From: Bryobacterales bacterium | GTDB taxonomy: Bacteria; Acidobacteriota; Terriglobia; Bryobacterales; UBA6623 | DNA: 64,000 nucleotides | Direction of reading: 5' to 3' | NCBI GenBank assembly: GCA_965214655.1 | Contig: OZ243965.1 | Span: 1,669,716-1,733,715 of the forward strand | In this document: one piece after another, positions 5,393-51,274 of the stretch | Numbering within the stretch: position 1 is the stretch's first letter | How the letters are laid out: each line of letters starts with the position of its first letter | Made by a program: the position numbers and the translations under genes | Notes under the pieces: model-generated | What the model saw: only the letters and a program-made list of their open reading frames with translations | Told to the model about the DNA's origin: nothing | The model's database searches: none

Positions 5393-5433
5393 GGGTAGCG
5401 AAAAGCCGCTGATTGTGGCATAAACGTATGTAG

Positions 5434-6901
5434 ATGAATATGTTGCAGCCGGCAACGAACGACTTTTCGCTAGGACACAGTGTAACCAAACAAGTTTTCG
5501 TTTTGCTACCCGATTCCGCCGTGAGGCGGTAGCCCGTTTCGATGGCGGGACGATCACCAGCGAGGCCGGGGCCCTGCTGCTGCAGCGCACCGAGCAGCAG
5601 ACCGGCATCCTGCGCCAGTTTGCGCGCTGCTTTCGCGACTCCCGCCAAGCGGAGCGGATCGAGCACAGCGTGGCGGAGTTGGTGAGTCAACGGGTCTATG
5701 GGCTGGCCTTGGGCTACGAAGACCTCAACGACCATGATCGACTGCGCAGCGACCCGCTGCTGGCGCTGTTGTCGGGCAAGGGCGATGTGCAGGGCCGCCA
5801 ACGTCGGCGGCGGCGGGATCGGGGCCGGGCCGGGGCGGGCAAGAGCACGCTGAACCGACTGGAGTTGACCCCTGCTGAGCCCGCTGAGCGGGCGCGCTAC
5901 AAGAAGATCGCCCTGGACAGCGCAGCGGTCGATGCGCTGTTGGTCGCACTCTACATCCAGCGGCAGAGTTGCCGCCCGCAGCGCATCGTGCTGGATCTCG
6001 ACGCCACTGACGACCGTCTGCACGGGCAGCAGGAAGGGCGTTTTTTTCACGGCTACTACGGCGCCTACTGCTACTTGCCGTTGTACATCTTCATTGACGA
6101 GCAGTTGGTCTGCGCGCGGTTGCGGACAGCGAACCGAGACGCTGCGGCGGGGGCGCTGGAAGAGGTCGTGCGGATCGTGGGGCAGTTGCGCCGGAAATGG
6201 CCCGGGGTGGAGATTCTGCTGCGCGCCGATGCAGGCTTTTGCCGCGAGGAGTTGATGAGTTGGTGTGAGCAACAGGGGGTGGACTACGTGTTCGGACTGG
6301 CCAAGAACCAGCGCTTGTTGCGCCGCCTGCACAAGCCGTTGCAGAAGGCGCAGCGGCGCTACGCTGCCAGCGGCAAGCCGGCGCGGGCGTTCGCCGAGTT
6401 CCGTTATCGCACGCGCCACAGTTGGCGGCGCAAACGGCGTGTGGTGGGCAAGGCCGAGCGGCTGGCCAAGGGCGCCAATCCGCGCTTCCCAATCTACGCT
6501 TCGTGGTGACCTCGCTCAGCACCGCACAGTACGCCGCGCAGAGCTTGTACGAGGATCTCTACTGCGCGCGGGGCGAGATGGAGAAGCGCATCAAAGAGCA
6601 ACAGTTGGCTTTGTTCGCCGACCGCACCTCGACGGCGCTGCTGCGCTCGAACCAGATTCGTTTGTATTTTTCTGCGATCGCCTACTGTCTGTTGCAAGCG
6701 TTGCGCGAGTTGGGCTTGGCGGGCACGCAGATGGCGCGGGCGCAATGCGCGACGATCCGCGTACGGCTGCTCAAGATCGGGGCGCGGGTGCGGGTGACGG
6801 CGCGCAAGGTGTGGGTCTCGATGGCTACGGGCCATCCGGCGCAGGCGCTGTTTGCTGCGGTTTACGCCAATCTGGGAAGGCCGCCGCCGCAGGGCTGCTG
6901 A
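5434..6901 (+). pseudogene. IS1380-family DDE transposase, frame-disrupted
   Basis: Homologous sequence is spread over three frames. ATG 5434 opens a 32-codon frame (MNMLQPATNDFSLGHSVTKQ...). Frame 0 carries ...FRFATRFRREAVARFDGGTITSEAG... through 6509 and has no ATG/GTG/TTG upstream of 5670. A third frame runs from about 6489 to 6901 (NLRFVVTSLSTAQYAAQSLYEDLYCARGEMEKRIKE...). A 14-nt tandem duplication at 6475-6502 explains the second shift. Confidence 0.8.
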
Positions 6902-16019: not shown

Positions 16020-16586
16020 ATGACCCCTGCAAAACCGCGTTTTCCCAGGCTTGCCCTGATTTTCCTCTGCGTTCTCGCCGCGCCGTTGGCGGCGCAAACA
16101 CCCTGGATCCACACCGAGGTGACCGGCGAGGACGGCTCCCACGTCAAGGTGAATGCCCCGCTCCCGCTGGCTGAAGCCGCCGTTTCGATCATGCCCCGGG
16201 ACATTCAGGAAGAAATCATGGAAGCGGCATCCGAATTCGACATCGACATTGCCGACCTGCGCAAGCTCTGGCAAGCAGTCAAGGCGGCGGGCGACGCCGA
16301 ATTCGTCACTGTCGAGTCCGCAAAGGAAACAGTGCGCATTGTCCGCGCCGGCGACCTGATTCAGATCCGCGTGACCGAGACTGCCGTTTCGGAAGACGCC
16401 GCACCGGCCGAACACAAGGTTGCTGTCGACGTGCCCATAGACGTCATCGAGGCATTGCTCAGCGGCGATTCCGAGACTTTGAATATCGAAGCGGCCGTCG
16501 GGCGGCTGCAGCAAATGCGGGGCGACATCGTGCGCGTCAACGACGGCAAGAACAAGGTTCGCGTCTGGATCGACGAGAAGAGTTGA
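16020..16586 (+). CDS. hypothetical secreted protein (paralogue of the next gene)
   Basis: 188 aa. Signal peptide MTPAKPRFPRLALIFLCVLAAPLAAQ. No family recognised. Confidence 0.55.
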   Translation: MTPAKPRFPRLALIFLCVLAAPLAAQTPWIHTEVTGEDGSHVKVNAPLPLAEAAVSIMPRDIQEEIMEAASEFDIDIADLRKLWQAVKAAGDAEFVTVESAKETVRIVRAGDLIQIRVTETAVSEDAAPAEHKVAVDVPIDVIEALLSGDSETLNIEAAVGRLQQMRGDIVRVNDGKNKVRVWIDEKS

Positions 16587-16592
16587 TCGACC

Positions 16593-17114
16593 ATGAAAAT
16601 CGCTCTCTCCATCGTCGGAGTCCTTGTCCTCGCGGTCGTCGTCACGGTCGCCTGGATGGACTGGCTGATTCTCGACGTCCATGAATCGGGTCCGGACGGT
16701 ACGCGATTTTGGATTCCCGTTCCCAAGGCGGCGGTCCGGTTGGCGGTGCGGGTTGTTCCCGACCAAGCGATGCCCGATATCCGCGCGGCGGAGTTCGCCG
16801 AGTATCGGGCAGGGTTTCGCGCGGTCGCCGACGAACTCGCAAAAATGCCGGATGCGGCGCTTGTCGAGATAACGGACGGCGCCGACCGTGTCGTCATCCG
16901 CAAAGAAGGAGGCCTGATTCTGGTCGAGGCAAGCGACGCAACGGACGAGGTCAGCGTGCGCGTCCCGGTCGCAGCGCTGCGCCATATCGCCGATGCGTAC
17001 GACGGCGAGCGGTTCGACCCGGCGCAAATCGTAAAGGCGCTCGACGAGTTTCCCCCAAGCCACTTCGTCCGCGTGCGCGAGCCCGGCGCGGAGGTGAGAC
17101 TGAGCATTCGCTAG
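16593..17114 (+). CDS. hypothetical membrane-anchored protein (paralogue of the previous gene)
   Basis: 173 aa. N-terminal TM helix MKIALSIVGVLVLAVVVTVAW. Starts 6 nt after the previous stop and shares its motif order by eye. Confidence 0.55.
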   Translation: MKIALSIVGVLVLAVVVTVAWMDWLILDVHESGPDGTRFWIPVPKAAVRLAVRVVPDQAMPDIRAAEFAEYRAGFRAVADELAKMPDAALVEITDGADRVVIRKEGGLILVEASDATDEVSVRVPVAALRHIADAYDGERFDPAQIVKALDEFPPSHFVRVREPGAEVRLSIR

Positions 17115-17132: not shown

Positions 17133-17798
17133 TCACGCCCGAGGAACCTGCTCCGCCAGTTCTTCTCGAATCGCCTCTCCCAGCTCTCCGGGGTCGAATC
17201 CGTACGGCCCCGGACCGCCTTTGTAAACGATGGCGCCGTCCGTATCCACGAGGTACATGCGCTCGGGCCACGCCGTATAGCGCTTTTCTACGGGGAAGTC
17301 CATTCGGTCGACCAGCGTGGGGAACTCGATATCGAGCCGCCGCACGCACATGTCGGCGTATCGATCCTTTTCCTCGTAGGTGCGCGCGAGGGGCACGTCG
17401 AATCCGCGCCGCGCATTGATCTTCAGCGCCCAGGCGTCCGCGGCGTGCGCTTCCCGGATGTAAATCAACAGAAACTGAACCCGCCCGCCGTATTCGCGGT
17501 ACAGCGCGTTGAGGGCCGGAACCTCCGCCCGAAACGGCGGTCAGGTGTAGCTGCCGAAAATCAAGGCGACCGGCTTTTCGCCGCGGAACGACGACAGCCG
17601 CACGGTCTCTTCGGATTTCTTGTATTGCAGCTCGAAATCGGGAGCCTCGCCGCCAAGCCGGAGCGGCCCTTCGCCGTGGCCCATTTTGGCTTCCCAGTAC
17701 TTCGCCTGGAGCCAAAAGGAGTACCCGCTATAGCCGCCGTAGGCCAGCGCCGCGGCGACGGCGCCGCCGGCGATCCACCATTTCTTGCGCCGCGTCAT
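17133..17798 (-). CDS. iodothyronine-deiodinase-like thioredoxin-fold protein with in-frame TGA (predicted selenocysteine at 17543-17541)
   Basis: Track ORFs 17541..17798 and 17133..17468 share one frame, and the 72 nt between them contain no stop. The joined product reads ...GEKPVALIFGSYT-[TGA]-PPFRAEVPALNALYREYGGRVQFLLIYIREAHAADAW...YKGGPGPYGF. This matches the deiodinase-family active site FGSxT-U-PPF and the IYIxEAHxxDxW block. N-terminal TM anchor. Confidence 0.8.
17513..17530 (-). promoter_or_regulatory. candidate bacterial SECIS hairpin
   Basis: The mRNA reads UGA + 10 nt + GGGCGGAGGUUCCGGCCC. This can pair as GGG-CGGA / UCCG-(G)-CCC with an apical GGU loop. The position (stem begins 11 nt after UGA) and a G-U in the loop fit the general bacterial SECIS model. 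Not folded computationally. Confidence 0.4.
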
Positions 17799-17870: not shown

Positions 17871-18293
17871 TCAGCCGGTCTCTTCGAAACTGCTGAAGAA
17901 AAACGCGCGCTCGACCGCCGCCGTCTCCGGCGCATCGGAGCCGTGGACCGCGTTTCTTTCGATGTCCGTGCCGTATAGATTGCGAATGGATCCCGCGGCG
18001 GCTTTCTTCGAGTCGGTCGCGCCCATGACCTCGCGCAGCTTGGCGATGGCGTCCTCGCGCTCCAGGATCATCGGCACGACCGGCCCCGAGGTCATGAACG
18101 CCACGAGGTCGTTATAGAAAGGCCGCCGGCTGTGCACCGCATAGAAGGCTTTGGCCTGCGCCTCGCTGAGCGTGATTTTCTTCATCGCCGCGATGACGAA
18201 GCCGGCTGCTTCCAGATGGGCGATGATCTTGCCCGTATTGCCAGCGGCGACGGCGTCGGGCTTGACGATGGTCAACGTTCTTTCAGTCGGCAT
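17871..18293 (-). CDS. ndk: nucleoside-diphosphate kinase
   Basis: 140 aa with [15 protein letters not shown]...[12 protein letters not shown], a canonical NDK. It is the C-terminal part of the 445-aa track ORF. ATG is at 18293-18291. Confidence 0.95.
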
Positions 18294-18295
18294 CT

Positions 18296-19198
18296 CTATC
18301 TTTCGCCGCCGGATTGCGGAGACGCAGCCGCGGCTTGCATCGCTCGAGCCAGCGTCGAAGCCAACTCGGCTGGCGAAGGCGCAACGGCTATCCCCGCCGC
18401 TTCCAGCGCCGCCTTTTTTTCCTTGGCGGTTCCCTTGCCGCCGGAGATGATTGCCCCGGCGTGGCCCATGCGCCGCCCCGGAGGCGCCGTCGCGCCGGCG
18501 ATAAAGCCCGCGACCGGTTTCTTCACGTTGCTCTTGACGAACTCGGCCGCGGCTTCTTCGGCAGTCCCGCCGATCTCGCCGATCATGATGACGCCCGCCG
18601 TGCCGGGATCGTCGTTGAACAGGCTCAGGGCGTCGATGAAACCGGTTCCGACGATCGGGTCGCCGCCGATGCCGATGCAGGTCGATTGCCCGATTCCCAG
18701 CGCCGTCAACTGGCCGACGGCTTCGTAGGTCAGCGTGCCGGAGCGCGACACCACGCCGACAGCGCCCTGCTTGTGGATCTTGCCCGGCATGATGCCGAGC
18801 TTGCATTTGCCGGGCGAAATGACGCCGGGGCAGTTCGGGCCGAGCAGGCGCGTCTTGCCGCCGCGCAGGGCGTCCGCCACCATCACCATGTCGCGCGCGG
18901 GGATGCCTTCGGTAATGCAGACGACCAACTCGATCTCCGCTTCGATCGCCTCCAGGATCGCGTCGGCGGCCCCCGGCGGGGGAACGAACACGATCGAGGC
19001 GTTCGGCCGCACGGCGCGGACGGCCTCGCGGACGGTATGGAAAACCGGCACGCCAAGCTGTTCCGAGCCGCCGCGGCCGGGGTGTACGCCGCCGACGATC
19101 TTCGTTCCATAGTCCATGCACTGCTGCGCGTGGAACGCCCCCGCGCGCCCGAATCCCTGGACGATGACGCGCGAGCTTTCGTCTACGAGTACGCTCAT
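18296..19198 (-). CDS. sucD: succinate--CoA ligase subunit alpha
   Basis: 300 aa with [34 protein letters not shown] and MGHAGAII. Confidence 0.95.
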
Positions 19199-19204
19199 GG
19201 TTCG

Positions 19205-20362
19205 TCAAGCGGCAAGCGCCACTACCTTCTCGGCGGCTTCTTTCATGTCGCCGGCAACGGTGAAATCGAGGCCGGATTCATTCAGGATTTCGCGGCCGCG
19301 CTCGATGTTCGTGCCCTCCAGCCTGAGCACGATGGGCGCCTGGATGTCGAGCTCGGTGGCCGCCGCGACTACGCCCTCGGCCAACACGTCCACCTTCAAA
19401 ATGCCGCCGAAAATGTTGATGAGGACGGCCTTGACGTTCGGATCGGAAAGGATGATGCGAAACCCGTTGCGGATCTGGTCTTTGCTGGCGCCGCCGCCGA
19501 CGTCGAGAAAATTCGCGGGCATGCCCCCGGCGTATTGGATGATGTCCATCGTGGCCATGGCCAGACCGGCGCCGTTGACGATGCAGCCGACGTTGCCGTC
19601 GAGCTTGATGTAGTTGAGGCCGTGGTCGATCGCCTCGGTTTCGAGCGGCTCTTCTTCGTCGAGGTCGCGCAGAGCGGCCAGGTCCGCGTGACGGAACATG
19701 GCGTTGTCGTCGAAGTCCATCTTGGCGTCGAGGGCGACGGCGCGGCCGTCATGGGTGATGACGAAGGGATTGATTTCGACCAGGGAGGCGTCAGTGGCTT
19801 CGTAGGCTTCGGCCAAGGCGGTCATCGCCTGCGCCGCGGCGGCGAATGCGCCGCCCTCGATGCCGATCTCGTAGGCGGTTCGGCGCGCCTGATAGGGGCG
19901 CAGACCGCGGCCCGGCTCGATCGTTTCCTTATGAATGGCTTGGGGGTTGCGGGCGGCGACCTCCTCGATCTCCATGCCGCCCTCGGCGGACGCCATGAAG
20001 ACCGGCTTGGCGATCGCCCGGTCGAGAACCACGCCGAGATAAATTTCGCGGGCAATGGGCATCTGCTCTTCGATCAGCAAGCGCTTGACGATCTTGCCTT
20101 CGGGGCCGGTCTGCGGAGTGATCAGCGGCCGGCCCAGGATGGCCTGCGCTCTTGCGACCGCTTGGTCAACGCTGTGAGCGAGCTTGACGCCCCCGCCCTT
20201 GCCGCGTCCTCCGGCATGGATTTGCGCCTTGACCACGACCTTGCCGCCGAGCTTCTCGGCTGCGCCGCGGACTTCGTCGAGCGAAAAGGCGACCGCGCCG
20301 CGCGGCGTGGGGACGTTGTAGCGGCGCAAGATCTCCTTGGCCTGGTATTCGTGAATCTTCAT
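19205..20362 (-). CDS. sucC: succinate--CoA ligase (ADP-forming) subunit beta
   Basis: 385 aa with [37 protein letters not shown] and [15 protein letters not shown]. Confidence 0.95.
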
Positions 20363-20467
20363 GGGATTGCCCCTGCGCGATCCGCTCTGCCCGGCGGTAC
20401 GATCAGGGGATTGGGAACGGAGCCTTAAAATCCAATTTTATCGAGGCTGCGAAGGGAACGCAATTCG

Positions 20468-23247: not shown

Positions 23248-24213
23248 TCAGTCAACAAGGTAGATTCCGGCGCCGATCAGCAGCGGCACGCCTTGCGCCG
23301 AGACCCGCTTGACGAAGGCGGCCTTGCGATGCCAGGTTCCCGTCCGGGGGTGGATCGCATGGTAGTAGAGATGGCTTTCGCCGAACGTGCCCGCCACGTC
23401 AACCATGTCTCTGCCGTTGAACCTTGCCCGATAGTCGCGGCCCCACTCCAGAACGGGCTTCCCGCTCAGCGTGATCGCATGGCCCGAAAACAACTGGTTG
23501 CCCAGCATGTCCATGCCGAACACGTAAATCGAGCCGGCGCGCCAGCGCGGATCGCTTTGCAGCAGCAGCGCGGCGAAGTAGCCCTTCGACTCGACTTCCA
23601 GGGCGGCGCAGCGGACGAACTCCTCCAATCGCTGCATCGACGGCTCGGCGGCGAGCAACTCGGCGTTGACTTGCGCGGGGTGGCAGGCGCCGGGGAAATC
23701 GCGGCTGTAGATCCCCGCGCCGATCACGGCGTCCTCCCCGTTCCAGTCGATGCGGATCGTGTAGCTGGCCTTGGGCTCGGTCAAGTTGTCATCCGGGTTG
23801 CGGAACTCGTAATAGACCCAGCCGCGGTCGGCCAACCCCGAAGTCCTGTGGAACTCCTCCACCAAATCCGTGCCGAAGCCGTCGGTCTGATCGCCCCAAG
23901 GCGTCCCTTCGCGGCTCGAATCCGGAGGAAAGACAAGGGGGGTGCGCGTCGAGGGATTCAGCACGAACACGTAGAACTGCCCGCTTTCCCAGCGCGCATC
24001 CTCGTGAAAGGCGCGCCGAGCTTCCTCAACGCCCGCCTCCAGGGCGTATTCGTAAGCGCACTGGACGAACGCCTCGATATCTTCCGTAGAGCGAATGGCG
24101 GCGGCGGCGACCGATTTCTCCGCGCAAGGGACGGGCGGCGCCGCGGAGGCCCGCGCCATGCTTCCCGCAAGCAGCAGAAGCGCGATGGGAGCAACCGCTC
24201 TCGAAACGTTCAT
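23248..24213 (-). CDS. secreted stand-alone double Cache-like (sCache_2-like) domain protein, copy A
   Basis: I place the start at ATG 24213 (MNVSRAVAPIALLLLAGSMARASA). Two modules each end in ..GAGIY and carry YVFV/YVFG...W.YYEF blocks resembling single-Cache_2 domains. No transmitter domain. Confidence 0.6.
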   Translation of the reverse strand: MNVSRAVAPIALLLLAGSMARASAAPPVPCAEKSVAAAAIRSTEDIEAFVQCAYEYALEAGVEEARRAFHEDARWESGQFYVFVLNPSTRTPLVFPPDSSREGTPWGDQTDGFGTDLVEEFHRTSGLADRGWVYYEFRNPDDNLTEPKASYTIRIDWNGEDAVIGAGIYSRDFPGACHPAQVNAELLAAEPSMQRLEEFVRCAALEVESKGYFAALLLQSDPRWRAGSIYVFGMDMLGNQLFSGHAITLSGKPVLEWGRDYRARFNGRDMVDVAGTFGESHLYYHAIHPRTGTWHRKAAFVKRVSAQGVPLLIGAGIYLVD

Positions 24214-24296
24214 CCCTGCGATTGTATCACCGCCGCGCCTGCGCCCGGTCACAACAGGACGGCGGCCGCAAGCGGAACGGCTGCCCGCTCGGCCGA

Positions 24297-25268
24297 TCAG
24301 TCGGTCAAGTAGATTCCGGCACCGATCAGCAGCGGCACGCCTTGCCCCGACACCCGCTTGACGAAGGCCGCCTTGCGATGCCAATTCCCCGTCTCGGGAT
24401 GGATCGCATGGTAGTAGATGTAGCTCTCGCCGAACGTCCCCGCCACGTCGATCATATCCCGCCCGTTGAACCTTGCTCGAGGATCGCGGCCCCATTCCAG
24501 AACGGGCTTGCCATTCACCACGACCGAATGACCCGAAAACAACTGGTTGCCCGCCATGTCCATGCCGAACACGTAAATCGAGCCGGCGCGCCAGCGCGGA
24601 TCGCTTTGCAGCAACAGCGCGGCGAAGTAGCCCTTCGACTCGGCCTCCAGGGCGGCGCAGCGGACAAACTCCTCCAGCCTTTCCATGGACTGTTCCTCCG
24701 CAAGCAGCGCGGCGTTGACTTGCGCGGCGTGGCAGGTTCCGGGGAAGTCGCGGCGGTAAATCCCCGCGCCGATCACGGCGCCGGTGTCGGTCCCGTTCCA
24801 GTCGATGCGCACCGCGTAGCTGGCCTTCGGCTCGGTCAGTCCGTTCTCCGGGTTGCGGAACTCGTAATAGACCCAGCCGCGGTCGACAAATTCCAAGGCG
24901 CGGTCAAATGCCTCGAGCAAGTCCGTGCCGAAGCCGTCGATTTGTTCGTCCCAAGGCGCCTCTTCGCGGCTCGGATCCGGAGGAAAGACAAAGGTAGTGC
25001 GCGTAGGGGGATTCAGCACGAACACGTAGAACTGACCGCTTTTCCAGCGCTTATCTTCGTGAAAGGCGCGGTACGCTTCCTCAGGGCCCATTTCTTGCGC
25101 GTACTCATAAGCGCATTGGACGAACGCCTCGATATCTTCCGTAGAGCGAATGACGGCGGCGGCGACCGATTTCTCCGCGCAAGGGATGGGCGCGGCCGCG
25201 GAGGCCGGCGCCATGCTTCCCGCAAGCAGCAGCAGCGCGATGGGAGTAACCACTCTCGAAACGTTCAT
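24297..25268 (-). CDS. secreted stand-alone double Cache-like domain protein, copy B (tandem paralogue)
   Basis: 323 aa, collinear with copy A along its whole length, with about four-fifths identical residues by eye. Same signal peptide. Confidence 0.6.
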   Translation of the reverse strand: MNVSRVVTPIALLLLAGSMAPASAAAPIPCAEKSVAAAVIRSTEDIEAFVQCAYEYAQEMGPEEAYRAFHEDKRWKSGQFYVFVLNPPTRTTFVFPPDPSREEAPWDEQIDGFGTDLLEAFDRALEFVDRGWVYYEFRNPENGLTEPKASYAVRIDWNGTDTGAVIGAGIYRRDFPGTCHAAQVNAALLAEEQSMERLEEFVRCAALEAESKGYFAALLLQSDPRWRAGSIYVFGMDMAGNQLFSGHSVVVNGKPVLEWGRDPRARFNGRDMIDVAGTFGESYIYYHAIHPETGNWHRKAAFVKRVSGQGVPLLIGAGIYLTD

Positions 25269-25361
25269 CTATTTGATCGTATTACAGCCGCGCACAACCG
25301 CGCACGCGCTCGGCAAACGGACGGGAAGACTGGAACAGTGCTACAACTAACTGGGGCGGTT

Positions 25362-26759
25362 ATGGAAAATTTCTCGGCGGATCGCCGAACGTTCCTCAGA
25401 GCGGGGGCGGCGACGGCTGTTGCGGGCTTGTTCGGGTGCTCCGCGCCGGAGCGGCAGGAGGGCAGGAAGCCCAACATCGTCATCGTCATCGCGGACGACC
25501 TGGCTTGGCGCGACATCGGCTGCTACGGCGCAACGCAGGTCGCGACGCCCAATATCGACAGGCTGGCCGCCGAGGGCATGCGCTTCGAGCGCACGTTCAC
25601 GGCCACGGCGATGTGCGCCCCGATGCGCCAGCAGATGTACACGGGCATCTTCCCGGTGCGCAACGGCGCCTACCCCAACCACTCGCAGTCGAAGCCGGGC
25701 GTGAAAAGCATCCCGCACTATTTCCAGCCGATGGGTTACCGCACGGCGCTGAGCGGCAAGAAACATTTCGGGCCGCCGGAAAACTATCCGTTCGAGTTCC
25801 TCGGAGACGGCAAGGACGTCGCTTATGAAGCGATTGACGAGTTCATCGCGCGCGACCCCGAGCAACCCTACTTCCTGGTGGCGTGCTCGAACGAGCCGCA
25901 TCTGCCCTGGAACCGCGGCGACGCGGCGAAGTTCGACCCGCAATCGTTCGCGCTGCCTCCCTATCTGGTCGATACACCCGAAACGCGGAAGGCGCTGGCC
26001 GCCTACTATGCCGAAGTCGAATATCTCGACGGACAGGTCGGCCGCTTGACGGCGGCGGTGGAAAAATCGGGCCGGGCCGACAATACGATTTTCATTTTCT
26101 GCAGCGAGCAGGGCGTCCAGTTTCCGCACGGCAAATGGACCTGCTACGACCTGGGCTTGCGCCAAGGCTGGATCGTGCGCTGGCCGGCGCGGGTCAAGGC
26201 AGGTTCGCTGGCGCAGGCAATGGTCCAGGGCGTCGACGCCTTGCCGACCTTGATCGAAGCGGCGGGAGGAGACCCTTCCGTCCACGATTTCGACGGCAAG
26301 AGCTACCTGGCCGTTTTGGACGGCCGCGCGGAGCGTCACGCCGACCATGTTTACGGCGTGCATACCACGCGGGGCATCATTCAAGGCAGCCGCTGCTATC
26401 CGGTGCGGTCGGTGCGCGACGAGCGGCACAAGCTGATCTGGAATCCCAACTACACGACGAAGTTTCAGAACGTTCTCACGGAAGCGGACAACTCGGGGTA
26501 TTGGTCGAGTTGGCTGGAAAAGGCCAAGACGGACGCCGCGGCGGCGGCTCTCGTGGGGATGTATCAACAACGTCCGGAGTTCGAGTTTTACGATGTCGTT
26601 GCGGACCCGCTCGAATTGACCAATCTTGCCGAAAACCCCGATCACGCCCCAAAGATTGCGCTGCTGAAGGCGAAGCTCGACGCCTGGATGGAGCAGCAAG
26701 GCGATAGCGGAAACGAAACCGAGATGGCCGTCAAGGCGCACAAGACCGGCATCGTCTAG
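25362..26759 (+). CDS. sulfatase (formylglycine-dependent, arylsulfatase A family)
   Basis: I place the start at ATG 25362 (MENFSADRRTFLRAGAATAVAGLFGC). PNIVIVIADDL and the CxPxR motif in TATAMCAPMRQQMYTG. The upstream 380 codons of the 845-aa track ORF are antisense to the Cache genes. Confidence 0.88.
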   Translation: MENFSADRRTFLRAGAATAVAGLFGCSAPERQEGRKPNIVIVIADDLAWRDIGCYGATQVATPNIDRLAAEGMRFERTFTATAMCAPMRQQMYTGIFPVRNGAYPNHSQSKPGVKSIPHYFQPMGYRTALSGKKHFGPPENYPFEFLGDGKDVAYEAIDEFIARDPEQPYFLVACSNEPHLPWNRGDAAKFDPQSFALPPYLVDTPETRKALAAYYAEVEYLDGQVGRLTAAVEKSGRADNTIFIFCSEQGVQFPHGKWTCYDLGLRQGWIVRWPARVKAGSLAQAMVQGVDALPTLIEAAGGDPSVHDFDGKSYLAVLDGRAERHADHVYGVHTTRGIIQGSRCYPVRSVRDERHKLIWNPNYTTKFQNVLTEADNSGYWSSWLEKAKTDAAAAALVGMYQQRPEFEFYDVVADPLELTNLAENPDHAPKIALLKAKLDAWMEQQGDSGNETEMAVKAHKTGIV

Positions 26760-26782
26760 CCGCCCGCGTCCGGGAGCGAAAT

Positions 26783-29242
26783 TTGTTGACGCCGCGCCGC
26801 CTCGATGCGTATTCTGCCATTGTGAGCTTGCGGCTGCCGCCTATCCGCTTGCTGCCCGTGCTACTCGCCGCGGCGCCGAGTTGGGCGGGAGTGTCTTTCG
26901 AGCCGCCCGACATTCATCTGCAAGGTCCGGGCGCGGCGCAGAGGTTTCTTGTCCGCGGGGGCGGCGGCTGCACGGTAACGAGCGGCGACCCCGGCATTGT
27001 CGGCGTCGCGGGGAACCGTCTGATCGGGCGGCGCGGCGGAACAGCGGAGCTTTCCGTGCGCTGCGCCGAGGGTTCGAGCCGGGTTTCGGTGCGGGTGGGC
27101 GAAGCCGCCGCCGCCGTCGGGATCGGTTTCGAGCGCGATTTGCTGTCGATCTTCACCACGAAGGGCTGCAACAGCTCGGCCTGCCACGGCTCGCCCGCCG
27201 GGCAAAACGGCTTCAAGCTGTCGCTCTACGGTTCCGACGCGAAAGCCGACCACGAGATGATCGTGCGCCGCGATGACGGACGCAGGGTCTCGCTGCAAGC
27301 GCCGGAGGAATCGTTGCTGCTGGCCAAGCCTTCGTTCCGTGTGGCCCACGGCGGCGGTCAGCTCATGACTCCGCAGGCGGACGAATACCGCACCATCCTC
27401 GATTGGCTCCGGCAGGGAGCGCGGTATGAAGCAGCGGGCGTTCGCCTGGAACGGCTGGAGATGTATCCCGGCGAAAGCGTGCTCGTCGGCGCCGGAGCGG
27501 CGCAGCCGCTCATCGTCATCGGCAGACTCTCCAACGGCTCGACCCGCGATATGTCCCATGAGGTGCGCTACGCCGTCAACGACGCGTCCGTAGTGTCCGA
27601 GGTCGAGGACGGCCGGGTGACTGCGCAAGGGCGCGGCCTGACCACGGTCACCGCTCGGGCGATGGGCAAGGTCGCTACGGCGCAGTTCATCGTGATCGAC
27701 GCAGCCGCCGGAGACGCATATCGGGCGCCGGACCCGAACAACTTCATCGATGAGCACGTCTTCCGCAAGTTGCGGGAAGTCAATATCGAGCCGTTCCCAT
27801 TGACTGCGGACCGCGCCTTCGTGCGCCGCGTTTTCCTCGACGCGGCGGGCGTCTTGCCGACAACCGACGAGGCCGAAAGTTTCGCCGCAAGCCGGGATCC
27901 GCACAAGCGGTCGAAGCTGATCGACCGCCTGCTGGAGCGCGAGGAGTACGCAACGCATTGGTTGGTCAAATTCGAGGACTGGTTCCGCAATTCCCAGTAC
28001 TACTCGCAGGGCCGCACCAACGGTTCGTACAAGCGCTGGCTTCACGACGCGATCCGCGAGGACAAGCCCTACGACGCCGCAGTGCGGGAGATGATTACCG
28101 CGGTCGGGGACACGACCGTGCGGCCGGCCGGGAATTTCTGGCATCCGGCAATCGATTTCATGTTGAAAAAATTCGAGATCGAGAAGGCCGTGCCGACGGT
28201 GACGCGCCTTTTCCTCGGACAGCGGATCGAATGCGCGCAGTGCCATAATCATCCGCTGGAAAATCTGACGCAAGACGATTTTTACGGCATGGCGGCGTTC
28301 CTGGCGCGGATGAAGGTCAAGCACGGTTACGGGCAGTACCGCCGGGTTTGGTACAACGAGCGGCGAGGCGAGGTTGCCCATCCGCTGACGGGCAAGCCGG
28401 TGGCGCCCAAATTCCTGGGCGGCGAAGCCGCGGACGTACCGCCGGGCGTCGACCGCCGCGAGGTCCTGGCCGACTGGATTACGCGCGAACGCAAGATGCA
28501 GTTCGCGCGCGCTGCGGTCAACCGCATCTGGCACGAGTATTTCGGCCGCGGCATTGTCGAGCCGTTCGACGACTTCCGTTCGACGAACCGCGCGACTCAT
28601 CCGCAACTGCTCGACGATCTGGCGCGGCTTTTCATCGACTCCGGTTTTCGGTTCAAGGCGGCGCACCGGGCGATCCTCAACTCGAAGACCTACCAGCTCA
28701 GCGCGCACACTGCGGGCCGCGCCGGCGGCGAAGACCCGCTGGAAGAGATTCTGTTCGCGCGCTATGTCCCCCGCAAGCTGCCCGCCGAGGTCTTGCTCGA
28801 CGCGATCGCGCAGGTGACCGGCAGCCCGGAAGAGTTTCGCGGCTACCCGCCGGGAACGTCGCCGAAAGAATTGATCGCCTCCATTGGCGCGACCTATTTT
28901 CTGACGACGTTCGGCCACCCGCGGCGCGATGTCATGGAAGCCCGAGCGAACGCCCCTTCGCTCGCGCAGGCGCTGCACATGATGAACGGAGACGTGCTGC
29001 AGGAAAGACTCGCCGCGGAAGACAACATCCTCAGTTCCCTTGTCGGCCGCGGCTTGAGCGATCGGGAAATCGTCCGCAGGCTCTACGTGCGCGCCCATTC
29101 CGCAGAGCCGGACGGGGAAAAAGCCGCGGCGGTCGAGCAGTATCTCGCGGCGGAACGCAGCGCGGGGCGGAGCCGCCGTCGAGGACTCGAGAACGTCTTG
29201 TGGGCTATCCTGAATGCCAAGGAGTTTCAGCTGAACCGCTGA
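26783..29242 (+). CDS. DUF1549/DUF1553 (PSCyt/PSD) domain protein with Ig-like domain
   Basis: 819 aa. CNSSACHGSPAGQNGFKLSLYG (PSCyt1-like), IECAQCHNHPLE (DUF1549 signature) and a DUF1553-like C-terminal half. The TTG start is uncertain; an alternative is GTG about 40 nt downstream. Confidence 0.8.
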   Translation: MLTPRRLDAYSAIVSLRLPPIRLLPVLLAAAPSWAGVSFEPPDIHLQGPGAAQRFLVRGGGGCTVTSGDPGIVGVAGNRLIGRRGGTAELSVRCAEGSSRVSVRVGEAAAAVGIGFERDLLSIFTTKGCNSSACHGSPAGQNGFKLSLYGSDAKADHEMIVRRDDGRRVSLQAPEESLLLAKPSFRVAHGGGQLMTPQADEYRTILDWLRQGARYEAAGVRLERLEMYPGESVLVGAGAAQPLIVIGRLSNGSTRDMSHEVRYAVNDASVVSEVEDGRVTAQGRGLTTVTARAMGKVATAQFIVIDAAAGDAYRAPDPNNFIDEHVFRKLREVNIEPFPLTADRAFVRRVFLDAAGVLPTTDEAESFAASRDPHKRSKLIDRLLEREEYATHWLVKFEDWFRNSQYYSQGRTNGSYKRWLHDAIREDKPYDAAVREMITAVGDTTVRPAGNFWHPAIDFMLKKFEIEKAVPTVTRLFLGQRIECAQCHNHPLENLTQDDFYGMAAFLARMKVKHGYGQYRRVWYNERRGEVAHPLTGKPVAPKFLGGEAADVPPGVDRREVLADWITRERKMQFARAAVNRIWHEYFGRGIVEPFDDFRSTNRATHPQLLDDLARLFIDSGFRFKAAHRAILNSKTYQLSAHTAGRAGGEDPLEEILFARYVPRKLPAEVLLDAIAQVTGSPEEFRGYPPGTSPKELIASIGATYFLTTFGHPRRDVMEARANAPSLAQALHMMNGDVLQERLAAEDNILSSLVGRGLSDREIVRRLYVRAHSAEPDGEKAAAVEQYLAAERSAGRSRRRGLENVLWAILNAKEFQLNR

Positions 29243-29254
29243 GTCGCCGTCGCC

Positions 29255-30529
29255 ATGCTGCTTTCCGGAATGCGTTCGCGCTACAGCCGCCGCGACGTGC
29301 TGCGGCTGGGCGGCGTTGCGTTCGGCGGCATTTCGCAGGCAAACATGCTGCAAGCGTCGACCGCGGGGCGCAAGGAAATCTCCTGCCTGATCTTCTTTCA
29401 GCAGGGCGGTTTGTGCCAGCACGATTCGTTCGACCCCAAGCCCGAAGCGCCGCGCGAGATTCGCGGCGGCTTCGGCACGATTCCGACGGCGCAGCCGGGG
29501 GTTCGGTTCAGCGAGTTGATGCCGCGCTTGGCCAAGGACTTCAACCGGTTTTCCGTCATCCGCTCGATGTATTCGCGCGAGGCGATTCACGAGAAAGCCA
29601 AGCAATACATCTTCTCCGGGCAGCGGCCGAACAACGCATTCAAGCATCCGGTTTACGGCTCGGTCGCGGCCCGCGAGCTGGGCACCCGCAACGGCTTGCC
29701 GCCGTTCGTGGTGATTCCCAAAAAGGATATCTGCGCCGATGCCGGATTTCTGGGCTCGGCCTACGATCCGTTCATTACCGGCGATCCGAACAAGGAGAAT
29801 TTCTCGGTTCAGGACCTGACGCTGCCGACCGGACTCGGTCTCGAAGAGGCCGCGGGCCGCGCCAGGCTGCTTGCCGCGCTCGATGCCTCGCTGGAGCGCA
29901 TGGAGAAATCTCAGGTGGTTGCCGGCATGGAGCATTTCTACAGCAAAGCGCTGGCTCTGGTGAGCTCGCCCCAGGCCAAGAAAGCGTTCGACTTGGGGGC
30001 GGAACCGGACAGGCTGCGGGACGATTACGGGCGGACCACCGCCGGACAAGGAGCGCTTCTCGCGCGGCGGCTGATCGAGGCCGGCGTGCGCTTGGCGGCG
30101 CTCTTCCACGGGGGGTACGACACGCACACCGACAACGACAAAACCAACAAGGATCTTTACCCCGAGTTCGACCAGGCGTTCTCGACGCTGTTGGCGGACA
30201 TGGACAGCCGCGGGCTGCTGGAGAGCACCCTGGTTTTGGCGATCGGCGAATTCGGGCGCACCCCGAAGATCAATCACTCGGCAGGCCGCGATCACTGGCC
30301 CGGCGTGTTTTCGGTTGTAGCGGCAGGCGCCGGAGTTCCCGGAGGACAGGCGATCGGCGCATCCGACGCCAAGGGCGCAGAGCCGGTCGACCGGGCGGTT
30401 TCGGTCGAAGACCTCGGAGCAACGGTGTACAAAAAGCTCGGCATCGACTGGAACGAGGAGTACCACACCAACGGGCGCCCGGTGAAGATCAATGACGGCG
30501 GCGCCCCGATTCGCGAGTTGTTCGGTTAG
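29255..30529 (+). CDS. DUF1501 domain protein (sulfatase-like fold, Tat signal)
   Basis: 424 aa with SRRDVLRLGG, SCLIFFQQGGLCQHDSFDPKPEAP and GEFGRTPKINHSAGRDHWP, typical of DUF1501. Starts 12 nt after the DUF1549/1553 gene. Confidence 0.85.
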   Translation: MLLSGMRSRYSRRDVLRLGGVAFGGISQANMLQASTAGRKEISCLIFFQQGGLCQHDSFDPKPEAPREIRGGFGTIPTAQPGVRFSELMPRLAKDFNRFSVIRSMYSREAIHEKAKQYIFSGQRPNNAFKHPVYGSVAARELGTRNGLPPFVVIPKKDICADAGFLGSAYDPFITGDPNKENFSVQDLTLPTGLGLEEAAGRARLLAALDASLERMEKSQVVAGMEHFYSKALALVSSPQAKKAFDLGAEPDRLRDDYGRTTAGQGALLARRLIEAGVRLAALFHGGYDTHTDNDKTNKDLYPEFDQAFSTLLADMDSRGLLESTLVLAIGEFGRTPKINHSAGRDHWPGVFSVVAAGAGVPGGQAIGASDAKGAEPVDRAVSVEDLGATVYKKLGIDWNEEYHTNGRPVKINDGGAPIRELFG

Positions 30530-32435: not shown

Positions 32436-33329
32436 TCAGCCCCGCGGGTGGCGCTTGTCGTAGACCTCGCGCAGGCGCTTGCGCAGAACGTGCGTGTAAA
32501 TCTGCGTGGTCGAAATGTCGGCGTGGCCGAGCATCATCTGCAGGCTGCGCAGATCCGCGCCGCGTTCGAGCAAGTGGGTGGCGAAACTGTGCCGCAGCAC
32601 GTGCGGCGTGAGCCGCTTGGCGATGCCGGCGGCGAGTCCTTGGCGCTTCAACAGCTTCCAAAAGGCTTGGCGGGTCATTGCCTTGCCGCGCGTCGTGACG
32701 AAAAGATATTCCGACGGCCGGTTTTTCAGAATGACCGAACGCGCGCGGCGCATGTAGTCTTCCAGCGCTTCAAGCGCCTCGCGCCCTACGGGAACGAGAC
32801 GGGTTTTGCCTCCTTTGCCCGTCGTGCGCAGCACGCCCATCTTGGCGTCCATCTCCACGGTCTTTGCCTGCACCAGCTCGGAGACGCGCAGGCCTGTCGC
32901 GTAGAGAAGCTGCATCATCGCATGATTGCGGCTTCCGAGCGGGGATTGGGGGTCCGCAGCGGAGAGCAGACGGTCGATTTCTTCGAGGGACAGATAGTGG
33001 GGGAGCTTTTTCCATTGCAGCGGCGACGTCAGGTTCGCCGTCGGGTCGGCCGCGAGATAGTTCTGCTGCCGGAGATAGACGTAGAGGCTGCGCAGACTCG
33101 ATAGATGGCGGGCGATCGAGCGGGCGCTGAGACCGGCCTCGTAGAGCGAGTCGAGAAACGCGCGCAGGTCGACGTTGTCGGCCCGGCGGATGGACCGCCC
33201 GCGTTCTTGCAGGAAACCGGCGAGGCGCGCGAGGTCTCGGCGGTACGCCTGGAGGCTGTTCGCAGAGAGTCCTTTTTCGACGCGGCAGTAATCGAGATAC
33301 TCCCGGACGATCGTTTCCATCGAGATCAC
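32436..33329 (-). CDS. xerD: site-specific tyrosine recombinase XerD (XerC/XerD family)
   Basis: 297 aa with YLDYCRVEKGLSANSLQAYRRDL, ATGLRVSELV, HVLRHSFATHLL and LGHADISTTQIYTHV. Confidence 0.85.
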   Translation of the reverse strand: MISMETIVREYLDYCRVEKGLSANSLQAYRRDLARLAGFLQERGRSIRRADNVDLRAFLDSLYEAGLSARSIARHLSSLRSLYVYLRQQNYLAADPTANLTSPLQWKKLPHYLSLEEIDRLLSAADPQSPLGSRNHAMMQLLYATGLRVSELVQAKTVEMDAKMGVLRTTGKGGKTRLVPVGREALEALEDYMRRARSVILKNRPSEYLFVTTRGKAMTRQAFWKLLKRQGLAAGIAKRLTPHVLRHSFATHLLERGADLRSLQMMLGHADISTTQIYTHVLRKRLREVYDKRHPRG

Positions 33330-33366
33330 AACATCTTGCGAATCAGGGCATTACGGGGCCGTACGG

Positions 33367-33953: not shown

Positions 33954-34874
33954 TTAATGCTCGGCTTCCAGGAAGCGCTCGGCTTCGATGGCGGCCATGC
34001 AGCCGGCGCCGGCCGCAGTGACCGCTTGGCGGTATACCTTGTCTTGCACGTCGCCGGCGTGAAAGACGCCCGCGACGTTGGTGCGCGCGCCGCCGTAGGA
34101 AACGATGTAGCCCTGCTCGTCGAGATCGAGCAGGCCGCGGAACACTTTGGTGTTCGGGATGTGGCCGATGGCCAGGAACAGCGCGTCGGTCTTGTGCTCC
34201 CATTCCTTGCCGTCGATAGTGCTTTTCAACTTGAGGCCGCTGACGGCCTTTTCGGCCGGCTCGAAAACTTCCTCGACCGTGGCGTTGACGATCCAGTCGA
34301 TCTTTTCATTGGCGCGGGCGCGGTCGAGCATGATTTTCGATGCCCGGAACTCGTCGCGGCGGTGGATGATCGTGACTGCGGAAGCGAATTTGGTGAGAAA
34401 GGTCGCTTCTTCCATCGCGCTGTCGCCGCCGCCGACCACGGCTACCGGCTGCCCGCGAAAGAAAAACCCGTCGCAGGTGGCGCAGGAGCTGACGCCGTGG
34501 CCGATGAGTTGCTGCTCGGAATCGAGGCCGAGCCAGCGGGCGGAGGCTCCCGAGGCGACGATCAGAGTTTTCGTTTCGACCTTGTCGTCGCCGATCCAGA
34601 CCTTGAAGGGGCGCTCGGAAAGGTCGACTTTCTCGACGTAGCCGGGCTTGAAGATCGCGCCGAATCGCTGCGCCTGCTTTTTCATGTTCTCGACGAGCTC
34701 GGGGCCCATGATCCCCTCGGGGAAGCCGGGAAAATTCTCGACCTCGGTGGTGAGGGTGAGCTGGCCGCCGGCTTCGGGGCCTTCGATAACGAGGGGCTCC
34801 AGGTTGGCCCGGGCGGCATAGATGGCGGCGGTGGCGCCGGCGCAGCCGGAACCGATAATCAAGACGTTCAGCAT
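33954..34874 (-). CDS. trxB: thioredoxin-disulfide reductase
   Basis: I place the start at ATG 34874 (MLNVLIIGSGCAGATAAIYAARA). Redox-active CATCDGFF, VVGGGDSAMEEA and GVFHAGDV. Confidence 0.92.
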   Translation of the reverse strand: MLNVLIIGSGCAGATAAIYAARANLEPLVIEGPEAGGQLTLTTEVENFPGFPEGIMGPELVENMKKQAQRFGAIFKPGYVEKVDLSERPFKVWIGDDKVETKTLIVASGASARWLGLDSEQQLIGHGVSSCATCDGFFFRGQPVAVVGGGDSAMEEATFLTKFASAVTIIHRRDEFRASKIMLDRARANEKIDWIVNATVEEVFEPAEKAVSGLKLKSTIDGKEWEHKTDALFLAIGHIPNTKVFRGLLDLDEQGYIVSYGGARTNVAGVFHAGDVQDKVYRQAVTAAGAGCMAAIEAERFLEAEH

Positions 34875-34985
34875 GGGGGCGGTTTCTCCCGAAAACGAAT
34901 CTCTCATTCTAACGACGCCCGCGCCGCGCCGGATGCGCGCCTCCGCTTGCGTGACTTTCGCCGCGGATTGCTAGCCTATAATCCG

Positions 34986-43100: not shown

Positions 43101-43226
43101 GTCCGGACCATGGCAGGTAAAACACTTGTCGGAGAAAATGGGACGGATATCCTTGCTGAACCGAACGGTAGCCGCGCCGGCGAAGCTGCACAAGGCGAAT
43201 GCCGGCAGGAAAAGCGTGATGCGCAT
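40179..43226 (-). CDS. PSCyt1-DUF1549-LamG-DUF1553 domain protein
   Basis: 1015 aa with a signal peptide. [21 protein letters not shown] (PSCyt1), [13 protein letters not shown] (DUF1549), a central concanavalin/LamG-like segment ([23 protein letters not shown]) and a DUF1553-like C-terminus. Confidence 0.85.
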
Positions 43227-43268
43227 TCTGGATTGAATTATAAGACCTGTCGCTCGCGAGTTGCGGCG

Positions 43269-46733: not shown

Positions 46734-46854
46734 GGCGGGGATGGTTTCCTGTCTCTTTCTTTCCTTGTACGGAAGGGTAGCGAACCTCACATGGTATCGT
46801 TTTCGGCATCGCTTTGGGCAACCCGCGCCGAAACACGATACCCTATGGACTTCC

Positions 46855-51123: not shown

Positions 51124-51274
51124 AACCGGCAGACCGCTATCGCAAGCGCACCCGTCGCGAGCGATTCCTGGAGGAAATAGTTGATCGAACCTTGTCCTTT
51201 CAGGTAGAAAGGAGGATTGAAGCCCGTGGCGGTTGGGACGACGAACGGCATTCGTGACCAAACACAGATCGAGC

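Follow-up and report, generated by a model that had tools for sequence, protein, structure and literature searches.

Does a TGA that cuts a bacterial reading frame in two end a gene, or does it stand for selenocysteine (Sec)? The question is raised by a locus on the minus strand of a 64,000-nucleotide stretch of DNA (hereafter the window: positions 1,669,716 to 1,733,715 of contig OZ243965.1, assembly GCA_965214655.1, assigned to a Bryobacterales bacterium), in which a preliminary description had recognised the two halves of a deiodinase-like, thioredoxin-fold protein and had predicted a selenoprotein. On the basis of comparative sequence analysis, we consider it highly probable that the locus is one gene of a Bryobacterales-type acidobacterium, and that its product is a selenoprotein of 221 residues belonging to the deiodinase-like family of bacteria. 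No other single observation speaks as strongly for recoding as a hairpin just downstream of the TGA, which the preliminary description had missed.

A single reading frame with one in-frame TGA

The frame opens with an ATG at 17798-17796, reaches the TGA at 17543-17541 and then continues for 135 further open codons to a terminal TGA at 17135-17133. In the list of open reading frames (ORFs) this appears as two minus-strand pieces, 17541..17798 (85 amino acids) and 17133..17468 (111 amino acids, with a TTG start), and the 24 codons that lie between them (17469-17540) are open and contain no stop. Read through, the product has 221 residues and contains the sequence ...KPVALIFGSYT-U-PPFRAEVPALNALYREYGGRVQFLLIYIREAHAADAW..., where U is the residue specified by the TGA. 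The preliminary description had laid out the same geometry, with two pieces in one frame and the TGA as the sole interruption, and both the ORF list and the translation agree with it. The start and the architecture of the full coding sequence are also seen in a syntenic relative, a 1-Mb contig of a metagenome-assembled genome (MAG) labelled Bryobacterales, Acidobacteriota (L001; CBDCCP01), in which sucC, sucD and ndk are followed by this gene as they are in the window and whose selenoprotein is 92-94% identical in amino acid sequence.

As had been anticipated, gene callers split the gene, and it stands mis-annotated as two fragments in every public assembly that we examined; joining them restores a complete enzyme bearing its active site. 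The public annotations could of course be taken at face value, the locus then consisting of a gene for an 85-amino acid membrane peptide and a second, independently started gene for a protein of 111 amino acids. This is exceedingly unlikely, as the split falls within the active-site motif of a single thioredoxin-fold domain, and the 24 codons in between keep the frame, are conserved and can be aligned with the animal deiodinases Dio3 and Dio2. Moreover, the possible downstream starts vary (TTG in the window, ATGs elsewhere in L001 and in another relative, L002), and the full-length homologues that have Cys in place of the TGA are single proteins.

Conservation of the TGA and of the codons behind it

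The top matches in a homologue search were fragments of 123-140 amino acids spanning only the half of the protein that follows the TGA, and after these came full-length proteins of 235-250 amino acids with the motif FGSYTCPPF. On the contigs of the fragment matches the arrangement is always that of the window: upstream lies an ORF of 84-85 amino acids, which ends at an in-frame TGA in the same column, and the fragment comes after it. Among the closest relatives, the TGA is present in L001 and in seven other loci. It is also present, identically, in L088, an independent 2.6-kb short-read metagenome contig that matches the window at 99.92% over 2,574 bp and on which the window's 85-amino acid fragment recurs verbatim. 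Although TGA is one base from TGT or TGC, L088 thereby disposes of the idea that a sequencing or assembly error conceals a Cys codon; the TGA shared by L001 and the seven other loci speaks against it too, and it would leave the hairpin described below unexplained. We regard the chance of such an error as negligible.

A broader survey took one genome per species, and the 80 loci considered come from the best-matching species-level genomes. At the Sec column, 56 of them have TGA, 23 have TGT or TGC and one has GGA, so that the Sec form is the majority, and it extends across several soil and sediment phyla. The genomes with TGA are labelled Bryobacterales, Blastocatellia, Terriglobales, Vicinamibacterales, several Planctomycetota, Gaiellales, Chloroflexia, Ignavibacteria, Kiritimatiellia, Binatia and others; among the Acidobacteriota, Planctomycetota and Gaiellales of soils and sediments, it is the Sec forms that dominate.

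The codons on both sides of the TGA are under purifying selection, with ratios of nonsynonymous to synonymous substitution (dN/dS, Nei-Gojobori estimates) of 0.09-0.29. For the part after the TGA the values are 0.10 against L001, 0.09 against L002 and 0.12 against L005, and a dN/dS of about 0.1 means that the downstream part is translated. The preliminary description had named a lack of conservation in the downstream codons as grounds for giving up its prediction; these codons have turned out to be conserved.

A few individual loci depart from the general pattern. One (L007:508-560; ENA ERZ27257347 k141_2011232) has an additional in-frame TAG 16 codons past the TGA and an A.C mismatch in the stem of the hairpin; decay of this copy or a fault in its assembly is the probable cause, and it is the sole such case among 60 Sec-type sequences. 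The single GGA (Gly) codon belongs to an Acidobacteria MAG (L060:3130-3132; VFZP01000284.1) that retains the Sec-type PPF motif and the RREVP codons that encode the hairpin, and could reflect inactivation of the enzyme, a mistaken base call or a variant of an unusual kind. Finally, two loci with unexpected taxonomic labels, L034 (NZ_CAJCHS010000296.1, labelled Nevskia soli) and L039 (labelled a Clostridia MAG), have a Sec-type motif and a hairpin nearly identical to the acidobacterial ones, for which mis-binning or horizontal transfer could be responsible.

A covarying hairpin follows the TGA

Among close relatives, the 33 nt that follow the TGA are nearly invariant while the flanks diverge: between the window and L002, only one of 36 nt differs over the element, as against 23% upstream and 31% downstream. 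Within this segment a hairpin begins 10 nt past the UGA, with a minimum free energy in the window of -9.8 kcal/mol (for an element of 20-26 nt) and a family mean of -10.5 kcal/mol. The consensus for the family is a 17-nt hairpin, GGCGGG-AGGUU-CCCGCC, whose AGGUU loop is found in 41 of 60 family sequences and whose loop Glu codon is essentially always GAG.

The evidence that this is a functional RNA element, a bacterial selenocysteine insertion sequence (SECIS), lies in the way the stem varies. It flips from G-C to C-G wholesale, giving GGCGGG/CCCGCC, GGUCCC/GGGACC and GGCGCC/GGCGCC, and with each flip the encoded peptide shifts, from Arg-Glu-Val-Pro-Ala to Ser-Gln-Val-Gly-Thr or Arg-Gln-Val-Gly-Ala. 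For a set of 60 distinct Sec-type sequences, with 500 column shuffles as the null, 82.1% of the cells in the stem are paired compared to 55.4% in the shuffles (none of the 500 reaching the observed value), the covariation score is 0.584 compared to 0.183, and every slid register scores lower. Double-sided changes account for 103 cells and occur in six of the seven stem pairs. The same columns in 23 Cys-form genes are only 34% paired and fold at -4.65 kcal/mol as against -10.48 kcal/mol (Mann-Whitney p = 3e-10); Cys-form genes lack the hairpin. A competing hairpin, CCGCC/GGCGG, placed directly after the UGA was also considered and was discarded, as its columns are paired at 42.3% against 42.7% in shuffled alignments and show no covariation.

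The hairpin can also be held against the consensus for bacterial SECIS elements of Zhang and Gladyshev, as quoted in a 2026 review (PMC13188914, Fig. 2), which asks for an apical loop of 3-9 nt on an upper stem of 4-16 bp; a loop of the form N1-G-(G or U)-N-N2, in which N1 and N2 are paired and the G is in the first two loop positions; a distance of 16-37 nt from the UGA to the apical loop; and a minimum free energy of -7.5 kcal/mol or lower. In the window, a stem of seven pairs with one bulged G carries a 3-nt GGU loop, or a 5-nt AGGUU loop when the A-U pair is counted as open; the loop region reads A-G-G-U-U, with an A and a U able to pair; the loop lies 16-17 nt from the UGA, close to the lower limit, with 10 nt contributed by the spacer and 6-7 nt by the stem; and the free energy given above is below the threshold. 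The hairpin thus agrees with the consensus on all four points.

It is against this background that one may ask whether the gene is simply broken, a nonsense mutation having arisen in a Cys-type deiodinase-like gene whose downstream part is no longer translated. The two fragments reported by gene callers might be read in this way, and the relative L007, with its extra TAG and weakened hairpin, does look decayed. However, the same TGA recurs in 56 species-level genomes of several phyla, the downstream dN/dS is about 0.1, the covarying hairpin accompanies the TGA forms specifically, and the downstream catalytic residues are all intact, such that the pseudogene reading is effectively refuted.

Two aspects of the hairpin reach beyond this gene. 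The SECIS is unusually uniform in the family, 17 nt in length and fdhF-like, and offers a compact, defined element for reporter or heterologous-expression work. Furthermore, maintenance of the stem forces coordinated amino acid changes, for example from Glu-Val-Pro to Gln-Val-Gly, which makes the family's SECIS a clean natural case of RNA structure constraining protein sequence.

The joined product is a deiodinase-like protein

With Cys put in place of the stop, the joined product scores 109.4 bits against PF00837 (T4_deiodinase; E 2.3e-31, cut-off 27), with residues 46-207 aligned to positions 73-230 of the 237 in the profile; membership in this family had been proposed in the preliminary description and is borne out. 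More generic Pfam models score lower, yet still above their cut-offs (AhpC-TSA, 48.6 bits; Redoxin, 33.9 bits). The NCBIfam model NF038285 ('deiodinase family protein', deiodinase_rel) gives 190 bits, below its curated cut-off of 250, and aligns only over profile positions 174-340 of 347; with a sub-cut-off score and a match to the C-terminal half only, we regard the protein as related to that family and not as a member of it.

When all sequences in the PDB are considered, the best matches are the catalytic cores of mouse Dio3 (4TR3/4TR4, E 9e-21) and mouse Dio2 (9H48, E 2e-20), both of which were crystallised as Sec-to-Cys mutants. The TGA column falls precisely on their catalytic residue, and on the Cys of bacterial homologues, as the preliminary description had claimed: FGSYT-TGA-PPF corresponds column for column to FGSCTCPPF in Dio3 and FGSATCPPF in Dio2, and the YI-x-EAH-x-D-x-W block is likewise aligned. 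In addition, S83, T85, Y113, E116, H118 and W123 are all present and essentially invariant in the family, matching Ser127, Thr129, Tyr157, Glu160, His162 and Trp167 of Dio2; in the Dio2 and Dio3 literature, the counterparts of the first five form a hydrogen-bond and proton-relay network, and that of Trp123 is a stacking Trp.

The structural comparison was made with a model of P0004, a full-length Cys homologue that is 53% identical to the window protein (mean predicted local distance difference test score, pLDDT, 88). In a Foldseek search with this model, Dio3 (template modelling score, TM, 0.78 by target length; root mean square deviation 2.2 Å) and Dio2 (TM 0.81) were nearest, and were followed by extracytoplasmic thiol-disulfide oxidoreductases (ResA, DsbE, Etrx) and 1-Cys peroxiredoxins such as AhpE, with E values of about 1e-9 to 1e-10.

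A second cysteine, Cys151, also stands out. Its equivalent is Cys in 58 of 61 Sec forms and in all 23 Cys forms, and is missing precisely in P0100 and P0106, two homologues of 231 amino acids from metagenome and NCBI collections that also lack the active-site Cys or Sec. In these two proteins the Sec/Cys column is occupied by Ser or Val and the other fold motifs are kept, and they look like non-redox paralogues.

Genetic code and selenocysteine machinery

TGA is a normal terminator of many coding-like ORFs in the window; the stops at 10519-21, 38665-67 and 54416-18, to which the preliminary description had pointed in arguing for the standard code, do end coding-like ORFs. Wherever else a TGA joins two long ORFs in frame, these are complete genes unrelated to one another (PSCyt2/PSD1 and DUF1501, GT2 and GT2, PIN-TRAM and IspD). 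Since TGA ends the neighbouring genes and these other pairs are separate genes, a reassigned code is excluded. The other TGA-joined pairs of the window, at 29240, 52853, 44525, 16584, 19207 and elsewhere, were all set aside as boundaries between separate genes or antisense shadows, and a finer scan of TGA-joined ORFs yielded no second selenoprotein candidate in the window.

A more subtle possibility is that this particular UGA is indeed recoded but specifies a residue different from Sec. Mukai et al. described selC* tRNA-Cys as a possible opal suppressor, which together with SelB might deliver Cys, and noted that allo-tRNAs in Acidobacteria may act as nonsense suppressors. On the other hand, selC* has been reported in Firmicutes, Thermodesulfobacteria, Nitrospirae and Proteobacteria and not in Acidobacteria, the features of the hairpin are canonical for SelB, the family is accepted as a selenoprotein family, and general suppression would conflict with the TGA stops of many neighbouring genes. 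Insertion of a residue other than Sec therefore strikes us as highly improbable.

If UGA is indeed read as Sec here, the gene implies that its host probably uses selenocysteine, and we assume that the trans-acting machinery (selA, selB, selC and selD) is encoded outside the window. ARAGORN detected no tRNA, and hence no selC, within the 64 kb. Acidobacteria were listed in 2006 with three selenoprotein families and four selenoproteins.

Several observations pull the other way and have to be set against the selenoprotein reading and the enzymology proposed below. In the lineage of the window and L001, the hairpin deviates from the family register in having a G.G mismatch, which can equally be drawn as a bulged G. 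Folding of single sequences gives z-scores of -1.2 to +0.9, which are not significant in sequence of 65% GC, and it is because of this that the case for the SECIS rests on covariation; the genuine E. coli element is likewise not recovered as the minimum free energy structure when folded singly. A search of the whole window against Rfam at the gathering threshold gave no hit of any kind, and hence neither a SECIS nor a tRNA-Sec, and when the threshold was relaxed for the locus only a chance match to isrK appeared (E = 5), although it is not established that Rfam has a model for bacterial SECIS elements of this type. With regard to the protein, the equivalent of the Dio2 proton-relay residue His182 is Ala, Cys151 occupies a position different from that of the distal, resolving cysteines of the animal enzymes, and the structural model was built on a proxy and not on the window protein. 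As for the machinery, selA, selB and selD are not among the approximately 45 ORFs of the window as judged by Pfam, which says nothing about the whole genome, and SelD and SelA signature motifs were not found in 590 kb of flanking DNA, a result equally uninformative for the genome as a whole.

Proposed decoding, location and chemistry

By analogy with E. coli fdhF, we propose that a ribosome arriving at the UGA of codon 86 would encounter, 10 nt downstream, the hairpin with its A-GGU-U apical loop. SelB carrying Sec-tRNA(Sec) would bind this hairpin, such that Sec would be inserted and termination avoided, as the cis-acting evidence and the fdhF precedent suggest. The final TGA of the gene, which has no such hairpin, would lead to normal termination.

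The nascent protein would probably be directed out of the cytoplasm. The most hydrophobic 15-residue stretch (residues 7-22, with a Kyte-Doolittle mean of 1.3) follows the basic sequence MTRRKK, and most of the family members listed have a signal-peptide-like or anchor-like hydrophobic N-terminus; the few that begin elsewhere have a mis-chosen ORF start or come from a cut contig. The transmembrane helix of the preliminary description is in part upheld, as there is a hydrophobic segment where it was placed, but it is only moderately hydrophobic and is better described as a signal peptide or signal-anchor. From the basic N-terminus, the moderate hydrophobic stretch and their recurrence throughout the family, it follows that the catalytic domain is most likely extracytoplasmic, that is, periplasmic or surface-exposed, and the signal peptide or signal-anchor would place the thioredoxin-fold domain likely in the periplasm.

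No conserved neighbouring gene that might serve as a functional clue was found in the lineage of the window. In the Cys-form subfamily with the motif FGSY[ST]CPNF, a secreted FG-GAP/ASPIC-UnbV protein and multihaem cytochromes c are recurrent neighbours (L044:885-5204 and about 15-20 other loci, among them L047, L052 and L058). This neighbourhood may constitute an extracytoplasmic redox module, and, given neighbours of this kind, an extracytoplasmic setting is again indicated.

Homology suggests that Sec86 would sit in a deiodinase/peroxiredoxin-type active site, FGSYT-U-PPF, backed by a hydrogen-bond network of Ser83, Thr85, Tyr113, Glu116 and His118. Its selenolate would attack an electrophile, which might be a halogen, a sulfur or the oxygen of a peroxide; Cys151 could then resolve the oxidised selenium to a selenenylsulfide, and an external thiol reductant would recycle the enzyme. 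A peroxiredoxin-like cycle of this type is proposed because Cys151 is conserved and is lost together with the active-site Cys or Sec in P0100 and P0106. The resolving step is the least secure part of the scheme, on account of the difference in position from the animal distal cysteines. Overall, a peroxiredoxin-like or thiol-selenol oxidoreductase role appears most likely.

A different role for the same selenoprotein may also be considered: instead of serving as a thiol oxidoreductase or peroxidase, it could be a periplasmic reductive dehalogenase that would act on natural halogenated phenolics through a Se-halogen intermediate, like the animal deiodinases. The protein keeps the Dio-specific insertion and the residues associated with thyronine binding and proton relay in Dio2 and Dio3 (His118, Trp123, Glu116, Tyr113, Ser83 and Thr85), the fold as judged from the proxy model is nearer to Dio3 and Dio2 than to any peroxiredoxin or ResA, and Sec is known to boost deiodination strongly, a Sec-to-Cys change lowering Dio activity about 1000-fold. 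Nevertheless, neither dehalogenation-related neighbours nor a conserved operon were found, the Arg275 clamp of Dio3 is not evidently conserved (although this residue mapping is unsettled), and the authors who described the family favour a generic redox role; we therefore judge a dehalogenase to be unlikely. A wider version of the proposal, prompted by the same retention in the Sec forms of the deiodinase-specific insertion and of the substrate and proton-relay residues, would make the Sec forms as a class exported, Se-dependent reductive dehalogenases of natural iodinated, brominated or chlorinated phenolics, resolved by Cys151 and ancestral to animal deiodinase activity. This is a speculation to which we give little credence, but if it were true, it would represent an unrecognised aerobic route of halogen cycling.

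Features of the locus and its surroundings

The features discussed above are collected in Table 1. The gene lies 72 nt from ndk, and in the syntenic L001 locus the three upstream genes carry the Pfam labels ATP-grasp_2/Ligase_CoA, CoA_binding and NDK. A scan of the locus gave no promoter-like or terminator-like signal above chance. On the other side, two hypothetical genes (188 and 173 amino acids; 16020-17114, plus strand) converge on the selenoprotein gene; neither matches a Pfam family, and their synteny is kept in L001 and L088.

Table 1. Coordinates of the selenoprotein gene, its elements and the adjoining upstream genes (window numbering).
Feature	Position	Strand	Remarks
Coding sequence of the predicted selenoprotein, complete	17133..17798	-	221 codons and terminal TGA (17135-17133); ATG at 17798-17796
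In-frame TGA, predicted to be read as selenocysteine, residue 86	17541..17543	-	Same column as the catalytic residue (Sec changed to Cys) in Dio3 (4TR3) and Dio2 (9H48)
Spacer, 10 nt, CCGCCGUUUC	17531..17540	-	Between UGA and hairpin; codes for Pro-Pro-Phe
Bacterial SECIS hairpin, GGGCGGA-GGU-UCCGGCCC	17513..17530	-	18 nt; 7 bp with bulged G (17517); apical GGU closed by an A-U pair
Predicted N-terminal signal peptide or signal-anchor, MTRRKK then WWIAGGAVAAALAYGGYSGYSFWL	17709..17798	-	Hydrophobicity after a basic N-terminus
Thioredoxin-fold deiodinase catalytic domain, residues 46-207	17178..17663	-	Dio-type insertion; S83, T85, U86, Y113, E116, H118, W123
Cys151 codon (TGC), candidate resolving cysteine	17346..17348	-	Conserved across Sec and Cys forms
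Upstream same-strand genes sucC (19205-20437), sucD (18296-19198) and ndk (17871-18293)	17871..20437	-	Context only

Elsewhere in the window, a thioredoxin-reductase-like flavoprotein (Pyr_redox_2, 338 amino acids) is encoded at 33954-34970 on the minus strand, 16 kb from the selenoprotein gene. There are two genes of mobile elements or recombination, a DDE_Tnp_1_4 transposase (5424-6509, plus strand) and a XerC/D-type tyrosine recombinase (32436-33350, minus strand); the transposase is not found in the L001 flank, which has an AA_permease gene that the window lacks, and synteny is locally broken. Pairs of PSCyt2/PSD1 and DUF1501 genes, a giant PSCyt1/PSCyt2/PSD1/Laminin_G protein and a sulfatase (26708-30529, plus strand; 40179-43268, minus strand; 24090-26759, plus strand) give the window a content that might be called 'planctomycete-type', although the label of the closest genome is Bryobacterales (Acidobacteriota). 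Also present are tandem GT2 glycosyltransferase paralogues with only a TGA between them (51221-54418, plus strand) and, at 45840-47718, two divergently oriented paralogues of the xylose-isomerase-like TIM-barrel type (AP_endonuc_2).

Comparison with known systems

Sec- and Cys-containing deiodinase-like proteins of bacteria were described from the Sargasso Sea, together with a bacterial SECIS, by Zhang, Fomenko and Gladyshev in 2005, who suggested a redox function unrelated to thyroid hormones; bacteria are not expected to contain these, and the literature anticipates some other substrate for the bacterial proteins. The Global Ocean Sampling (GOS) study of 2008 reported 22 Sec and 21 Cys deiodinase-like forms, and reviews of 2022 and 2026 list the bacterial family under PF00837. 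The gene described here has the defining features of this family, known in bacteria since 2005: homology to PF00837, an in-frame UGA paired with Cys in homologues, a bacterial SECIS with a G-containing apical loop directly downstream, and a presumed redox function. It differs in that the published cases are marine metagenome reads whereas this one is from a genome of Bryobacterales-like Acidobacteriota, and in that the representative motif in the reviews is, by their description, UxxC, whereas here it is U-P-P-F with a distal Cys151. What our analysis adds to the known family is incremental, namely its breadth in Acidobacteriota and other soil phyla, the predominance of the Sec form, quantitative covariation of a uniform SECIS, likely export, and the conserved Cys151.

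Besides the FGS-x-T-U-PPF and YI-x-EAH-x-D-x-W motifs, the protein has in common with animal Dio1-3 a thioredoxin/peroxiredoxin-like fold, a hydrophobic segment at its N-terminus, the Dio-type insertion and five of the six residues of the proton relay. Nevertheless, identity is only about 30%, the second conserved Cys is elsewhere, Ala replaces the Dio2 His182, and the catalytic domain here is probably extracytoplasmic. Moreover, the SECIS is a bacterial hairpin within the coding region, in contrast to the kink-turn element in the 3' untranslated region of the animal genes.

For the SECIS itself the closest comparison is with E. coli fdhF, whose element we checked against 5,419 E. coli genomes: a UGA, 11 nt, and the 17-nt GGUUGC-A-GGUC-U-GCACC. 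Here there is a UGA, 10 nt, and GGGCGG-A-GGU-U-CCGGCCC, and both present GGU in a small loop closed by an A-U pair on a bulged stem. The stem sequences are unrelated, however, and the bulged nucleotide here is a 3'-side G (absent in most family members), whereas that of fdhF is a 5'-side U; the loop is one nt shorter and one nt nearer to the UGA, and SelB binding is here a prediction.

Finally, the protein shares a common fold, above-cut-off AhpC-TSA and Redoxin matches, and N-terminal anchoring or export with ResA, DsbE/CcmG, TlpA, Etrx, AhpE and BCP. It differs from this group in several respects: it has no CxxC, its Sec nucleophile is followed by Pro-Pro-Phe, it has the deiodinase-specific insertion, and its PF00837 score is much higher. 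With NF038285 it shares the C-terminal catalytic half, whereas the N-terminal ~170 positions of that profile have no counterpart in a protein of 221 amino acids.

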